The position numbers and the translations under genes were made by a program. Source: a bacterium (GTDB lineage Bacteria; UBA8248). From it: DNA of 64,000 nucleotides. Location: positions 3,456,001 through 3,520,000 of the forward strand of contig OZ253442.1 of the NCBI GenBank assembly GCA_965261085.1, in the 5' to 3' direction. Positions 8,212-14,654 of the stretch are shown here, one piece after another. Numbering within the stretch: position 1 is the stretch's first letter; the number at the start of each line of letters is the position of its first letter. A model generated the notes under the pieces. That model was not told the DNA's origin. It worked only from the letters and a program-made list of their open reading frames with translations, and did not search any database.

Positions 8212-8701
8212 GGTTTTCCCTCCCGGTCCGTCTGCTTTAAGCAGCGGACCTATTGAATATCCCGGGCGCATCCTATGTCTCAGGATGCGCCGGAACCGAA
8301 TGAGCGCTGCAGAAGCACGTCACAGGACTCCACGACAACCACTATTTTCCTTTGTAGCTTGAATGAAAACACCCTAACATCAAATACCATTCGAGGTCAA
8401 AATTCTCTTGTGAATATCCGCGTATTGAAAATGGACCGTCGGCGAGCGCCCTGCCAGAAGCCCCTCTCCTCACGCGCAGAGAACCACGCATTTCCCCGCA
8501 GGAGCGCGTTCTGTGTGGGTGTATCGTCCCTCTGCTCGACGCGCGGCCTTCGTTCTTGAAACCGCGCATCACCGAGCCGGAAATCGGCCCGCTCGAAGAT
8601 CCCGTATCGCGCTATCCGGGCGTGAGGGAAAGGGAGTCATCGGGGCGGGTGCCGGGCGGCGAAATCGAGGCTTAATCACTCCTGAACAATACTGAAAAAT
8701 A

Positions 8702-8743
8702 CGATAAATTCACGGTGTTTTTCGATAAATTAACGGTGTTTTT
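8702..8743 (+). repeat. Two tandem 21-bp direct repeats (CGATAAATTMACGGTGTTTTT)
   Basis: 8702-8722 cgataaattcacggtgttttt and 8723-8743 cgataaattaacggtgttttt; a related inverted copy lies at 25547-25575. Confidence 0.85.
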
Positions 8744-8925
8744 CTGAACGCATCGAGGGCGTTTTCCGAGCGTTTTTTACGCGATATCGCCGCGCCGGCC
8801 GGTGGCCCCACTCTCAAGATTCAGGCGTCCCGGCGCTCGCTCGCAGGGCGCGTCGCCGCCCCCGAAAACGAGACGGTGGGGGATAACCGGGCGGTTTTCA
8901 GCCCTCTTTCCCCTTCTTGCGGCGC

Positions 8926-8990
8926 TTATCCACAGAAATACACAACATTTGGGGATAAGGTGTGGGTAAGTGCATATATTTTGTGTATAT
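8926..8990. promoter_or_regulatory. Cluster of DnaA boxes upstream of nrdJ
   Basis: Perfect TTATCCACA at 8926-8934; near-consensus reverse copies TGGGGATAA (8950-8958), TGTGGGTAA (8961-8969) and TGTGTATAT (8982-8990). Confidence 0.6.
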
Positions 8991-9004
8991 CGATTTTTTT
9001 TGTA

Positions 9005-9073
9005 TTGACAGAGGGGAGCAAAGCATACTACATTTAGTGTTGTAGTTTGATTTCAGCATACTAAATATGTCCC
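9005..9073 (+). promoter_or_regulatory. nrdJ sigma70-type promoter with NrdR boxes
   Basis: -35 TTGACA (9005-9010) and -10-like TACATT (9029-9034). ATACTACATTTAGTGT (9025-9040) matches the NrdR consensus acaCwAtATaTwGtgt. Weaker boxes at 9058-9073 and 8940-8955. Confidence 0.7.
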
Positions 9074-9110
9074 CGGCATAGCGGGACGCCCTTAGCGGAG
9101 GAGACAGGAA

Positions 9111-12100
9111 GTGGAGTTTACGAGGCGTTTTACCCGGGCCGGAGAAGAGGCGTATGGCGACATCCACTTCGCGCCGCGCACCTCACGCATCATCAACCCG
9201 GACGGCTCGGTCGTCTTCGAAGCGAAGGACGTCATGGCGCCGGAGAACTGGTCCCAGGTGGCCGTCGACATTCTGGCGCAAAAATACCTCCGAAAAGCCG
9301 GCGTCCCCACCCACTCGAAAAAGATTCCCGAAGACGGCGTGCCCGAGTGGCTGCAACGCTCGGAGCCGGACACGGAGAAACTCGAATCCCTGCCCGAGGA
9401 TGAGCAATTCGGCAGCGAGCGAGACGCCCGGGACGTTTTCCACCGCATGGCGGGATGCTGGACGTATTGGGGCTGGAAACACGGTTATTTTCATGTAGAA
9501 GAGGACGCCAAGGCGTTCTATGAGGAGATTTTATTCATACTCGCGAGCCAGATGGCGGCTCCCAATTCGCCGCAGTGGTTCAATACGGGCCTCCACTGGG
9601 CTTACGGCATTACGCGCCCCGCCCAGGGCCATTTCTACTGCGACCCCGAAACCGGGGAAATGCTCCGCTCCACCAATGCCTATGAGCGTCCCCAGCCGCA
9701 TGCGTGCTTCATACAATCGGTGAAAGATGATCTCGTCAACGAGGGCGGGATCATGGATTTGTGGACGCGCGAGGCGCGCATCTTCAAATACGGCTCGGGC
9801 ACCGGCACGAATTTCTCGAGCCTCAGAGCAGAAGGGGAATCGCTCTCGGGTGGAGGAAAAAGTTCCGGACTGATGAGTTTCCTCAAGATTGGGGACCGTG
9901 CCGCGGGCGCAATCAAGTCGGGCGGTACGACGCGACGCGCGGCGAAGATGGTCACGCTCGACATCGATCATCCCGATATCGAGGAATTCATCAACTGGAA
10001 GGTGCATGAAGAACAGAAAGTGGCTGCCTTGGTATCAGGCAGCAAGATGTGCAGCCGGCATATGAACGCCATTCTCGGAGCTTGCCTGGAGGGGAAGAAC
10101 CTGGGCTTGAATGGCAACTTCCATCAGCCGGACAAGAACCCATCGCTCACCAAAGCGATACGCGCCGCAAGGCTCGCCGGTGTTCCGGATAATTACATTC
10201 ATCGAACCCTTCAACTCGCGCGACAAGGCATCACCGAGGTCGAGTTCGAGGAATTCGACACGAACTGGGAAGGCGAGGCCTATACTTCGGTGTCCGGGCA
10301 AAATTCGAACAATTCCATACGAGTTTCAGATGAATTCATGAAAGCCATCGAGAAAAACACGGACTGGAACCTGATTCGGCGCACCGATGGTGAAATTGCC
10401 GACTCCCTTAACTCGAAAGAACTCTGGGACCAGATTGGATATGCGGCGTGGTGCTGCGCAGATCCCGGCCTTCAATTCGATACGACCATCAACGACTGGC
10501 ACACGTGCGCCGCCGATGGGCGCATCAACGGTTCTAATCCCTGCTCGGAATATATGTTCCTCGATGACACCGCATGCAATCTCGCGTCGATGAATCTCAT
10601 GAAATTCCTGGATACTGAAAAGAACCATTTTCAGATAGAAGACTATCGCCACGCTATTCGACTTCTGACAGTCGTCCTGGAAATTTCAGTGCTCATGGCG
10701 CAATTCCCCAGTCCGGAAATAGCCAAACGCTCATATGAGTATCGAACCTTGGGGCTTGGATATGCCAATCTGGGCACCTTGTTGATGGTGCTTGGCATCC
10801 CTTACGATTCGCCGGAAGCGGAGGCATGGTGCAGCGCTCTTACCTCCATCATGACCGGCTGTTCGTATGCCGCCAGCGCTGAGATGGCCGGAGAACTGGG
10901 CGCTTTCGTCAGGTATCAAGGCAATCAAGAGCATATGTTGCGAGTACTGAGAAACCACCGCCGCGCAGCTTATTCAGTGCCTGAAGCCGAATACGAAATG
11001 CTCTCTAAAGCGCCAAAAGGTATCGCTACGGAAATCTGTCCCCATTATCTTCTCCAAGCGGCGCGAGAGGCGTGGGACGATGCTTTGGCCATTGGCTACC
11101 GAAACGGCTATCGGAATGCGCAAGCTACTGTCATTGCACCGACAGGCACCATTGGTCTGGTGATGGATTGTGATACAACGGGAATCGAGCCGGATTTTGC
11201 TTTAGTGAAATTCAAAAAACTGGCCGGAGGCGGTTACTTCAAGATCATCAACCAATCTGTTCCTCTTGCCTTACGGCATCTGGGCTATGACGATGAAGAT
11301 ATCCGTGAAATCGTCGCCTACTGCCGAGGTCGGGGCACCCTCACGAATGCGCCTCATATCAATCCAGAATCTCTGTACGCAAAAGGGTTTACCAGCAAGG
11401 CACTCGAAAAGGTGGAAGCCGCACTTGAAGGGGCGTTTGAAATCCAGTTCGCCTTCAACAAATACTCTCTCGGTGAAGACTTCTGTCGTGAGCAATTAGG
11501 GATCAATGAAGCACAAATAGCCGACTGGAATCTGAATCTGCTCGGAGCCATTGGTTTCACTCCAGAGCAAATTAGTGAAGCGAATGATTTCGTCTGCGGC
11601 AAAATGACGCTAGAAGGCGCGCCCCACCTGAAAGAAGAGCATTTGGCTGTTTTTGATTGCGCAAGCAAATGCGGACGCGAAGGTAAGCGCTTCATCAGCC
11701 CCATGGCCCATGTTCGGATGATGGCAGCGGCACAGCCTTTCATATCAGGCGCCATCAGTAAAACCATCAACATGCCCGCGGAATCCACGATTCAAGAAAT
11801 CTTGGACATATACCATGAATCGTGGCAACGGATGACCAAAGCCATTGCGATTTACCGCGATGGCTCGAAACTAAGCCAACCACTTTCCGCACAAAGCGAA
11901 GCGGAACTCTTCACTGACATTAGTGAAGAAGAACCAGTTTCCCATAGCGCTCCGGTGCACGTAGCCCAGCAGATTGTGCGACGGATTATTTACCAATCCA
12001 GAAGACGCAAGTTGCCTACCCGCCGTGGTGGATACACGCAAAAAGCCGTCATCGGTGGACACAAGGTGTATCTCAGAACCGGGGAATACCAGGATGGCTC

Positions 12101-12701
12101 TATCGGCGAAATTTTTATAGATATGCACAAAGAAGGCGCTGCCTTCAGAAGCCTCATGAACTGTTTCGCCATCGCGATTTCCCTAGGACTCCAACACGGC
12201 GTCCCCTTGGACGAATTTGTGGATGCCTTCGTCTTCACGCGCTTCGAGCCCGGGGGCATAGTCTCAGGCAACCCACATATCAAGATGAGTACGTCCATCA
12301 TCGATTATATCTTCCGTGAGTTGGCAGTTTCATATCTCGGACGCCATGATCTTGCACAAGTCGTGTCGGAGGACTTGAGGAGCGACACTATTGGGCGCCC
12401 CCAGGAAGAGATCCCGGAATTCGACACCGAGGAAGAAGAAGAGATTCGAACCATATTCCCGGGGCCAGATACGAGCGCTCCGCGCAGTAACCGAGTAAGT
12501 TTGAATTATGAGAAAGAATCCACTCACGCTTCAATGACGCCAATAACAGAAACGGACTACGCCTTCGATTCACGCATCGAAGAAGCTCGCGCCAAAGGGT
12601 ATGAGGGTGAAGCATGTAGCGATTGCGGTCTATTCACCTTGGTAAGAAACGGCACGTGTCTAAAATGTATGACATGCGGAGCAACGAGTGGATGTTCTTG
12701 A
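9111..12701 (+). CDS. nrdJ: Adenosylcobalamin-dependent (class II) ribonucleotide reductase
   Basis: [27 protein letters not shown], the NPCSEY finger loop, [19 protein letters not shown], a C-terminal TSCPD-like domain and a CxxC..CxxC zinc-ribbon tail. Confidence 0.97.
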
Positions 12702-12710
12702 AAATTATTA

Positions 12711-13005
12711 CCCGTCGTGGGGGAAACGGGCGGACTCTGCGACGGGACGAGAGTCGGGGAAAACCCTCGGAGGGTTATTCCCCGACTCTCACCAAAAATA
12801 GAATTCCCATTGAATTCTCTTGCTGCGGGGGAAACGGGCGGACTCTGCAGCAGGACCGGGAACCGGGGATAATACACCTTGTGGGTTGAATCCTCGGTTC
12901 CCATTTTAAGTTAAGCGTAATTCCCTGCTGCGGGGGAAACGGGCGGACTCTGCGGCAGGTCGAGAGCCGGTGAAGTCTCCTAGGGGGAGTTCTTCATCGG
13001 CTCTC
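12711..13005 (+). ncRNA. Tandem array of three putative structured RNA units (two hairpins each); family unknown
   Basis: Invariant 22-mer GGGGGAAACGGGCGGACTCTGC at 12719, 12827 and 12932, inside 12-bp stems with compensatory and G-U changes; each unit is followed by a long second hairpin. Confidence 0.65.
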
Positions 13006-13015
13006 CCTTTTTTAC

Positions 13016-13044
13016 TTGACACTCGAAGCTCCTTCACCTACCTT
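13016..13044 (+). promoter_or_regulatory. Probable tRNA promoter
   Basis: TTGACA-17 bp-TACCTT immediately upstream of tRNA-Ala. Confidence 0.55.
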
Positions 13045-13058
13045 CAGGTTCCTTTTGT

Positions 13059-13134
13059 GGGGGTGTAGCTCAGATGGGAGAGCGCGTGGATCGCACCCAC
13101 GAGGTCAGGGGTTCGAATCCCCTCACCTCCACCA
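13059..13134 (+). tRNA. tRNA-Ala (anticodon CGC)
   Basis: Cloverleaf with acceptor GGGGGTG/CACCTCC containing G3:U70, anticodon stem CGTGG/CCACG with loop ATCGCAC, TTCGAATC T-loop and encoded CCA. Confidence 0.96.
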
Positions 13135-13156
13135 GTACAGTTCCTTGAAATGAATA

Positions 13157-14005
13157 CTACGCATTGAGCATGACGAGAGCCGCCTCTCGTGTCCTCATAC
13201 CTTCTCGAACCCCACGCTTTTCTGCCACTTCATTCATGCATGAAATGACACCGTCTTCCCATGTGCTCATCACATCGCCAATACGCGCGCTCATGGCGCC
13301 GACTGCCGCCACTGCGATCCCCTCGCGCGCCAGATAGGGAAAAGATGCGATACCGGAATCATCTTTTCCCCTCCCTGCATCATTCGCAACAACACCCTTC
13401 AGATTGAGCTTTAAAACATGCGGAACGAGAGTAAGCCCGCAATGAGAAGCTTGGATAAAGACATCTTGGGGCCTTGCTTCTTTGATAGAGCGCAGGACGG
13501 GAATGCCCCATGAGGCGCGTATATTGCCCTCAGGTAAATGCTCTAATTCGTATATTCTATCGTGAAGACTCTCTTCGACAACCACCTTCCGGCCCACCTC
13601 GGCATTGAGCAGACAATCCGAGGCCTCAGCTATTGACTGACCAATTTCAACACCAAGGGACTGGGCTGCCCGATTCACATGGCCGACTTCGCCTTCATAC
13701 ACGGATTCACCCACCGCGAGTCTGGCGGACATGGTCTCACACGCCAACGCAGGCACATGATATTCCTGAGCCAAACACAAACCGCTGATGCCCGCATTAT
13801 CCTTTCCAACTCCCGCCGCATGAGCAACTACTGCTCTCGCCCCCAAGCGCATTGCCCAGGCAATCGTCATGCGTGCGGCGTAAGAACCTCCAATGAGAAC
13901 ATCCCTTTCCCCAACCCTCTCGTCAAAATATGTCATCGAATCCGCTGAGAGAACGCGGCCACGCACGTCTTCATGATGAATCGTCTGTTCATCTATCGCC
14001 ATCAT
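13157..14005 (-). CDS. Conserved hypothetical protein made of two homologous halves
   Basis: Both halves show (A/D)AG.GKD.(A/S)GI...MSAR(L/I)...G.(V/I)...N..A...GV..G....EA. Start set at MMAIDEQ. Confidence 0.75.
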   Translation of the reverse strand: MMAIDEQTIHHEDVRGRVLSADSMTYFDERVGERDVLIGGSYAARMTIAWAMRLGARAVVAHAAGVGKDNAGISGLCLAQEYHVPALACETMSARLAVGESVYEGEVGHVNRAAQSLGVEIGQSIAEASDCLLNAEVGRKVVVEESLHDRIYELEHLPEGNIRASWGIPVLRSIKEARPQDVFIQASHCGLTLVPHVLKLNLKGVVANDAGRGKDDSGIASFPYLAREGIAVAAVGAMSARIGDVMSTWEDGVISCMNEVAEKRGVREGMRTREAALVMLNA

Positions 14006-14654
14006 ATTCTCTTTCATTAAGTCATGAACAAAATGTAATTTCTGGAGATATGTCAGCCCAAGAGAAACGCCCGGCTGATACCTCAACCGGGCGTCAAATT
14101 ATCATTCCCCATTGAGCGTTAGTATTCAGCAGGAGCATAACCCCCTTCGCCGTCACTTAAGAAGGAGAAATCATCAATTACACTCTTATCAGGCACATCA
14201 TAATTCACATCCGTTGGCAGCACGTCTCCAGACTCTGCAAAAAACTCGTGGTCCAAGACAACAACACTATCTGTTAGCTCGATCATTTCATCCTCATTTT
14301 ATAGGCTGTTCGATACGAATCTTCTCGGACATGGTTACAGGCGACATCACAAAGGCGGGGAGTATACTCAAATCATTTAAAAAAGCAACACTTTTTTCCC
14401 ATAAACTCTTATTTTTCAAGTGCTAAAATGTATTCACTCAAAGCGATGCTTGTCATTGTCTTTGGTGACATTTGGGGGCGAAATATTTTAATAAGACCAA
14501 AATAGAAAACTGGTGAAATGCAGTTCGTATACCTCCGTCTTGTTTAACACGTAGTATGATGCTAGTGAATACGCGCACAAATAATAGTTGCCCACAAAAG
14601 TGAGAACTTACTCGATAAATGTTTTAGGCGAAAAGGCTTGCGCAACCAAAATGT

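Follow-up and report, generated by a model that had tools for sequence, protein, structure and literature searches.

A tandem array of two-hairpin modules downstream of nrdJ in Nitrospinaceae and its possible role as a docking tail of the ribonucleotide reductase mRNA

The element described here is a tandem array of three two-hairpin units which directly follows nrdJ, the gene of a class II (B12-dependent) ribonucleotide reductase (RNR), in a stretch of 64,000 nucleotides (nt) from a bacterium of the Nitrospinota/Nitrospinaceae (contig OZ253442.1, positions 3,456,001 to 3,520,000 of the forward strand; this whole stretch is referred to as the window). The array forms an RNA structure on the plus strand which is subject to purifying selection. 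Its occurrence is limited to a single bacterial family, with one locus in each genome, and it belongs to no Rfam family. It very probably represents a functional structured RNA belonging to the nrdJ transcript. As to its function, we tentatively propose that it may be an array of modules in the 3' untranslated region (UTR) which dock a trans-acting factor controlling, or coupling to, the fate of the nrdJ mRNA, with single units possibly being released by RNase E/G.

Each unit consists of a first hairpin, P1, with 12 base pairs (bp) and a 12-nt loop, followed by a long second hairpin, P2 (Table 1). The stem of P1 is built from eight outer covarying pairs and an inner GGGG/CUCU helix with two G-U pairs and closes the loop GAAACGGGCGGA, each P1 in the window containing three G-U pairs. 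An identical 22-mer, GGGGGAAACGGGCGGACTCTGC, is present at 12719, 12827, and 12932, always on the plus strand, and was not recovered once from 100 shuffles of the sequence; in the whole one-contig genome (4,267,820 bases), a search allowing up to three mismatches returned only these three copies, all from the single locus and on the plus strand. The predicted folding energies are -164.6 kcal/mol for the plus strand (z = -10.4) and -131.5 kcal/mol for the minus strand (z = -6.9). The repeat had been picked out in a first-pass annotation made from the sequence alone, whose description of the 22-mer, the stems, and their coordinates proved correct base for base: the fold bears out both the invariant loop closed by a 12-bp stem in all three units and the long second hairpins, the last one with a T tract, and the outer stems are unlike each other between units yet paired, as quoted there.

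Evidence for selection on this structure comes from the comparison of related units. From 37 genomes, 94 units were collected, 87 of which are distinct; 86 of these were aligned, leaving out a degenerate second unit (L030), and the covariance model was built from this alignment. RNAalifold identified 25 pairs in the 86 units, 19 of them with compensatory double changes, and 96.8% of the cells form standard pairs, versus 88.3% after shuffling. None of 500 shuffles reached the observed value in any of five measures, a count which is not equivalent to a probability because the units are related. The argument for structural selection is carried by the slid controls and the diversity of pair types: only 45-60% of the cells pair when the partners are slid by 1-3 columns, and many independent pair types occur at one position (e.g., CG, UA, UG, GU, GC, and AU). 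G-U pairs make up 375 of the 2148 paired cells (summed over the per-pair table) and would turn into A-C mismatches on the opposite strand, which identifies the RNA as the plus strand, i.e., the sense of nrdJ. The motif CGGGCGGAC in the P1 loop does not vary among the 86 units, the A preceding it is retained in at least 90% of them, and the GGGG/CUCU helix below the loop is nearly invariant, including its G-U pairs, as is the P2 apex CCU-NGG-NGG. The loops read N3-4-A-CGGGCGGA for P1 and NGG for P2. A mutual-information search for tertiary pairs in the alignment returned the known helices and paralogue signal only, and no covarying contact with the loop. The two initial claims that selection acts on the RNA structure plus a displayed loop, and that the G-U pairs fit the plus strand only, are thus supported by the alignment.

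The distribution of the array among relatives was assessed in 51 genomes of the phylum, comprising 42 of the window's family f1 (including the window's genome), seven of the sister family f4, one of f3, and family f2. A covariance search of related genomes had been proposed in the first-pass annotation, and the model matched 37 of the 42 family genomes, with 1-4 tandem units at one locus each. No match was obtained in any of the seven f4 genomes or in the f3 genome, and a marginal match in f2 (G042, 29 bits), which sits upstream of a prs-like gene, was rejected. All five unmatched family genomes are fragmented: two have a contig end behind nrdJ, 7 nt past the stop codon in one and 38 nt past it in the other, where the end falls inside a recognisable first P1 arm, and in the remaining three the C-terminus of nrdJ was not found. 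With the nrdJ 3' flank unassembled in all five, no assembled nrdJ 3' flank of the family was seen without an array. An earlier pattern scan of the 42 family genomes had matched 38, among them L032 as a false positive; extended to all species genomes, the scan showed Nitrospinota, Nitrospinaceae, or 'Tectomicrobia' metagenome-assembled genomes as holders, and its matches in L032, L067, and a Fuerstiella contig (L051) were discarded as false positives without hairpin context.

In every genus, the array starts 7-40 nt downstream of the nrdJ stop codon, which is TGA, TAA, or TAG (in the window, nine bases separate the TGA from P1 of unit 1). The genes on the other side vary, with tRNA-Ala in four genera (g1, g3, g5, and g9) and other genes in two (g2 and g8). 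The constant partner of the array is nrdJ and not tRNA-Ala, and of the original placement between nrdJ and tRNA-Ala only the first half holds for every genus. The modules are 95-108 nt long in tandem copies, and four genomes of about 2 Mb from genus g8 contain exactly one unit each, in which all conserved features are kept. In the window's genus, each of units 1, 2, and 3 corresponds by position to an orthologue in the other genomes and has its own P2 shape, which argues that the copies are old and individually maintained. Units 2 and 3 of L020 are identical over a 92-nt core reaching from the P1 stem to the unit end, indicating a recent duplication, and unit 2 of L011, L018, and L019 (same genus) has no P1 but retains P2. 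These cases show that modules are still being gained and lost.

The module as a general companion of long-type nrdJ genes was rejected. Three genomes of the sister family f4 have unrelated nrdJ 3' flanks, and the 3' flanks of 80 metagenomic long-type nrdJ loci, selected for resembling the C-terminus of NrdJ at 47-58% identity, yielded no credible match to the model, the best one scoring 18.6 bits and lying >1 kb downstream; no tandem array was present among the 55 loci with a placeable stop codon. These data bear on the possibility of a passive 3' end, in which stable hairpins would block 3' exonucleases, terminate transcription, and insulate nrdJ from the tRNA promoter without any trans partner. 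The stems are indeed very stable, the arrangement would suit an essential mRNA of 3.6 kb at its 3' end, and a terminator scan scores the array end as an intrinsic terminator, using the same T tract with a register-shifted stem (12982-13008); in the window's genus, P2 of unit 3 and its T6 tract probably serve as the intrinsic terminator ending the nrdJ-array transcript. However, the combination of G+C-rich hairpin and U tract is found only at the last P2 of the window, the U tract being missing from the internal units and from the single units of genus g8. Moreover, a passive end requires stems, but not a 9-nt loop, a G-U helix, and an apex which stay fixed over eight genera while the stems covary, and a match to the module was obtained in none of the 80 other long-type nrdJ 3' flanks, a tandem array in none of the 55 with a placed stop. 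A purely passive role is therefore considered quite unlikely.

Contigs assembled from RNA libraries (metatranscriptomes; four runs from four studies) connect the array to nrdJ. All four begin within the nrdJ coding sequence, pass the stop codon, and extend into the array, covering 12459-13057, 12133-12863, 12611-12937, and 12437-12746 with 3-10 differences; they derive from close relatives, not necessarily from the window's strain, and in the four runs none covers nrdJ upstream of 12133. These bridging contigs agree with co-transcription of nrdJ and the array. Further, the linkers between the units measure only 9-14 nt in two genera, which leaves no space for promoters of the individual units. 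The array is thus present in RNA libraries of four studies, and among the options considered in the first-pass annotation, a 3' module of the nrdJ mRNA is favoured by the position of the array after the nrdJ stop in every genus and by the short linkers in some.

The 5' flank of P1 is A/U-rich with the consensus R-A-A-U-U-Y (of 84 distinct units, 64 have U at -2, 56 have U at -3, and 50 have A at -5), and genes for RNase E/G and RNase III are present in the window's genome. Tandem hairpins with invariant loops are rare in bacterial 3' UTRs, and one close precedent was found, namely CcsR1-4 of Rhodobacter sphaeroides. These 'cuckoo' RNAs are four tandem two-hairpin RNAs from the 3' UTR of ccaF1 (RSP_6037), which are cut by RNase E at GUUUCC, CUCUUC, and ACUUC and bound by the CcaF1 protein (PMC8034643). 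The two systems are alike in architecture, consisting of co-transcribed tandem two-hairpin units with a conserved loop motif behind a protein gene, in a copy number which differs among relatives, and in the U-rich 5' edge of the units (GUUUCC and ACUUC there, R-A-A-U-U-Y-CC here); some individual flanks, e.g., AAUUUCC, AACUUCC, and AGUUUCC of L063, resemble the RNase E sites of CcsR1-4. They differ in that CcsR1-4 display CCUCCUCCC in both loops, whereas CGGGCGGAC occurs only in the first loop here and another fixed apex is present on the second hairpin; in the upstream gene, which codes for a small DUF1127 RNA-binding protein in one case and is nrdJ in the other; and in their hosts, Alphaproteobacteria versus Nitrospinota, with no Rfam model matching the units described here. 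Maturation by RNase E and binding of a protein have been demonstrated for CcsR1-4 and are inferred here. As a separate observation, P2 is directly followed by NCCA (mostly ACCA) in about half of the internal units (27 of 53) and in a smaller share of the last units (6 of 33, among them the four single units of g8); one idea would be that this motif forms a candidate tRNA-like 3' end on a helix, to be recognised by RNase P.

An alternative is that the units are sibling trans-acting small RNAs (sRNAs) cut from the nrdJ 3' UTR, whose loop would act as an antisense seed for C-rich sites (GUCCGCCCG) of target mRNAs and thereby report nrdJ transcription to other genes. Such a role would fit the invariant stretch of 9-10 nt in an open loop, which resembles a seed, the layout of a seed hairpin followed by a 3' hairpin as in many sRNAs, and the presence of an RNase E/G gene. 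Co-transcription of the units with nrdJ and their U-rich 5' flanks, like the RNase E sites of CcsR1-4 (PMC8034643), point the same way. On the target side, perfect 8-mer complements of the loop were counted in the four A+T-rich 2-Mb genomes of genus g8, using a backwards pattern as control. Sites for TCCGCCCG numbered 6, 11, 9, and 10 (control: 6, 11, 9, and 2) and sites for CCGCCCGT 7, 8, 9, and 8 (control: 9, 9, 12, and 1), the complements thus being as frequent as the control pattern. Among the 48 complement sites compared, a single one is common to all four genomes, with the complement on the strand opposite the gene, and no conserved antisense target was found with perfect 8-mers in the four genomes; in the window's genome, the loop complement likewise occurs at the frequency expected from base composition. 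The search for complements in mRNAs, recommended in the first-pass annotation, therefore gave a negative answer at the level of these genomes, and the null results weaken the seed model. In addition, a G-rich seed cannot target Shine-Dalgarno sequences and leaves the fixed G-U helix and the P2 apex unexplained, and neither of the chaperones Hfq (PF17209) and ProQ (PF04352) was found in the window's genome (one contig, 96% complete by marker genes; positive controls detected), which led us to reject an Hfq- or ProQ-dependent sRNA. Release as trans-acting sRNAs in general is regarded as possible, but rather doubtful.

The one site common to the g8 genomes was also inspected on the gene strand, where a Na+/H+ exchanger gene is followed, at 5 nt from its stop codon, by a hairpin with CGGGCGGA in a bulge of the 3' arm (L136:2507-2570 in G033; also L115, L122, and L134). 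It had no Rfam match, represents the sole other conserved display of the motif that was seen, and is probably due to chance. Elsewhere in the window's genome, 43 of 557 copies of the loop motif are displayed by hairpins, which corresponds to the control level; stems of at least 12 bp are found in the array only.

Neither P1 nor a complete unit was matched by any Rfam 15 family in a search of positions 11000-14500 at E-values up to 10. Within the array, the only sub-threshold match is to archaeal RNase P, located on P2 of unit 1 (12751-12788), with 16.7 bits versus a gathering score of 84, and a scan of the whole window at gathering scores detected two tRNAs only. The initial impression that the array does not belong to a known family thus holds, and none of the findings named at that stage as speaking against it (an Rfam match, lack of transcription, or dispersed copies) was obtained, given the missing Rfam match, the presence in RNA libraries, and the single locus per genome. 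A ligand-sensing aptamer in the 3' UTR, which might bind a deoxynucleotide, ATP/dATP, or adenosylcobalamin and alter the decay of the nrdJ mRNA, would be attractive for a gene encoding the sole, B12-dependent RNR, and the invariant loop on covarying stems as well as the tandem layout resemble riboswitch aptamers. However, no Rfam riboswitch matched, neither a multi-helix junction nor a covarying tertiary contact was detected, and the element lies behind its gene, followed by unrelated genes depending on the genus and with no apparent expression platform. We consider an aptamer very improbable.

Another conceivable partner of the loop is the ribosome. The loop sequence ACGGGCGG has a perfect complement, CCGCCCGT, in the genome's only 16S rRNA gene, within ...GTACACACCGCCCGTCACACC..., which is the sole complement of the loop certain to be conserved, and the A before CGGGCGG is present in at least 90% of the units. 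The 16S stretch holding CCGCCCGT is what we take to be the universally conserved decoding-centre strand (CCGCCCGU), and by pairing with it the tail of the nrdJ mRNA might capture 30S or pre-30S particles. If true, such a tail would correspond, in a bacterium, to the 3' translation enhancers found in plant viruses and would couple the synthesis of deoxynucleoside triphosphates to ribosome supply. On the other hand, the complementarity comprises 8 nt only and would leave the invariant 3' AC of the loop unpaired, and in 3.2% of the trials a shuffled 22-mer has at least as many 8-mer matches to the rRNA operon as the real one, most of the real matches being located in the non-conserved part. The decoding-centre strand is, moreover, largely engaged in the mature 30S subunit, and we know of no bacterial precedent. 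Hardly any credence is given to this option. As a side observation, the sequence ACGAGAGTCG of unit 1 (12747-12756) is identical to ten 16S bases near C1:857400, six bases after the loop-complementary stretch; it is not kept in other units, and the identity was treated as chance.

The docking proposal, to which we return here, regards the array as a structured 3' UTR at the end of the nrdJ mRNA, made up of tandem two-hairpin modules. Each module would offer two fixed surfaces, namely the P1 loop CGGGCGGAC on its invariant G-U helix and the P2 apex CCU-NGG-NGG, and both surfaces would dock a dedicated trans-acting factor, which is more likely a protein than an RNA. Consecutive modules would provide avidity, and docking would decide the fate of the mRNA of the sole RNR between 3'-end protection and endonucleolytic entry and also titrate the factor in proportion to nrdJ transcription. 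The R-A-A-U-U-Y flank before P1 would be the likely entry site of RNase E/G, cleavage there might produce module RNAs of about 100 nt, comparable to CcsR1-4 of Rhodobacter, and the last P2 with its U tract would stop transcription in the window's genus. In the iron-responsive elements of the transferrin-receptor mRNA, several hairpins with invariant loops in the 3' UTR dock one protein, which decides on the decay of the mRNA. The nrdJ array likewise shows invariant loops on variable stems lined up in a 3' UTR, whereas the iron-responsive elements are eukaryotic single hairpins with a CAGUGN loop and a bulged C, and their known protein serves many targets, as opposed to the one target here. In sponges of the CsrB/RsmZ type, a single RNA presents a short G-rich loop motif many times over, and the array shares with them a repeated G-rich loop, the invariant 3' end of the P1 loop being GGA and the P2 apex holding GG. 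However, the P2 apex is variable in the position following GG, so that GGA is not conserved there, the stems are long, the loop comprises 12 nt, and the array forms the tail of an mRNA. A CsrA sponge was rejected because CsrA (PF02599) was not found in the window's genome.

Several points weigh against the docking proposal. As to possible partners, none of CsrA, Hfq, ProQ, and RRM_1 was found in the window's genome (RRM_1 occurs in 3 of the 51 phylum genomes), and a regulator with a single target mRNA would be unusual. The RNA contigs show no strand, ends, processing, or abundance, and DNA carry-over into the RNA libraries may have contributed to them. A/U-rich linkers are to be expected between G+C-rich hairpins in any case, which makes the interpretation of the flank as an RNase E site a weak one, and the antisense test which argues against a seed covered perfect 8-mers in one genus. 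If the array does dock a factor, the lack of Hfq, ProQ, CsrA, and RRM proteins suggests that the partner is likely a new RNA-binding factor.

A family-specific module fixed to one mRNA points to a post-transcriptional layer on the supply of DNA precursors, in a gene which represents the only route to deoxynucleotides in the window's genome. The Nitrospinota are major marine nitrite oxidisers. As far as titles and abstracts of the literature searched reveal, neither the array itself nor a post-transcriptional layer of this kind on any RNR has been described. Strongly covarying and tied to a single genomic context, the module is represented by 94 units in 37 genomes and is a candidate for a new Rfam family.

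Table 1. Features of the array and its surroundings; positions refer to the window.
Feature	Position	Strand	Basis or remark
nrdJ, class II (B12-dependent) RNR, 1196 amino acids	9111..12701, TGA 12699-12701	+	Pfam
A/U-rich 5' flank of unit 1 (AAATTATTA)	12702..12710	+	belongs to conserved R-A-A-U-U-Y flank
Unit 1 P1	12711..12746, loop 12723-12734 (GAAACGGGCGGA)	+	repeat, fold, covariation
Unit 1 P2	12749..12790	+	inverted repeat, fold, covariation; near-invariant apex CCU-NGG-NGG
ACCA directly 3' of unit 1 P2	12791-12794	+	
Unit 2 P1	12819..12854, loop 12831-12842	+	repeat, fold, alignment
Unit 2 P2	12858..12902	+	fold; longer form, position kept across genus
Unit 3 P1	12924..12959, loop 12936-12947	+	repeat, fold, alignment
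Unit 3 P2 + CC + T6 tract	P2 12962-13005, T6 13008-13013	+	hairpin from fold
Putative own promoter of tRNA-Ala: TTGACA, 17 nt, TACCTT	13016..13044	+	kept in tRNA-bearing relatives
tRNA-Ala(CGC)	13059-13134	+	downstream neighbour, outside element
Convergent open reading frame, 309 amino acids	13157-14086	-	weak Pfam DUF1805, IMS only

Some further classes of elements were considered for the array. Elements of the repetitive extragenic palindromic (REP) or bacterial interspersed mosaic element type, like intrinsic terminators, also form G+C-rich hairpins behind genes, and the last hairpin with its T tract does correspond to a terminator, but the array differs from REP elements by its one locus per genome, its one orientation, and its fixed loop sequence. 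A REP element or miniature inverted-repeat transposable element was accordingly rejected, with three copies at one locus on the plus strand only in the window's genome and one locus in each of the 37 genomes. The genome has a true REP family of its own, headed by GTAG and composed of GTAGGGGCGGACC, 3-7 nt, and GTCCGCCC, with about 21 copies (e.g., outside the window at C1:572131, 1675742, and 3618071); it often forms inverted pairs in relatives and occurs in 17 of the 42 family genomes, all from one genus. A link between the array and this family, which has eight bases in common with the loop (GGGCGGAC), was rejected as apparently due to chance, the REP family being limited to one genus and the loop being fixed in eight. 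Descent from tRNA was dismissed because the alignment scores are at the level of shuffled sequences, and the longest complementarity to any of the 52 tRNAs amounts to 7 nt. A selenocysteine insertion sequence or another read-through signal was dismissed as well, since the stop codon is TGA, TAA, or TAG depending on the genus. A CRISPR (clustered regularly interspaced short palindromic repeats) array or type III antitoxin repeats were rejected because the differences among the outer stems compensate each other and conserved hairpins take the place of 'spacers'; the downstream side of the array contains tRNA-Ala and then a convergent open reading frame with weak DUF1805 and IMS matches only, no screen for cas or toxin genes having been made.

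As for the neighbouring genes, the nrdJ product shows the Pfam domains Ribonuc_red_lgC, Ribonuc_red_2_N, and TSCPD and provides the single RNR barrel match in the window's genome, in which the class III enzyme NrdD was not found. Its residues 1-927 closely match a solved class II RNR (PDB 7b9p/7b9q) and are followed by TSCPD and a Cys-rich tail, and an RNA-binding insert in NrdJ was rejected on these grounds. A candidate internal promoter at the end of nrdJ (12639-12666) was rejected because its -10 hexamer is not conserved in relatives. The TTGACA/TACCTT pair behind the array scores below the threshold of the consensus scan and, as judged from its conservation, probably represents a separate promoter of tRNA-Ala. 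The convergent open reading frame of 309 amino acids may be wrongly delimited or comprise two genes. The intergenic region upstream of nrdJ is unusually long (about 840 nt) and contains two copies of ACGGTGTTTTTC, a direct repeat of about 12 nt, about 25 nt apart at 8700-8750. The nrdJ leader (8890-9110) includes a TTGACA-type promoter and several A/T-rich palindromic stretches at about 8940-9075, which look like candidate NrdR boxes.

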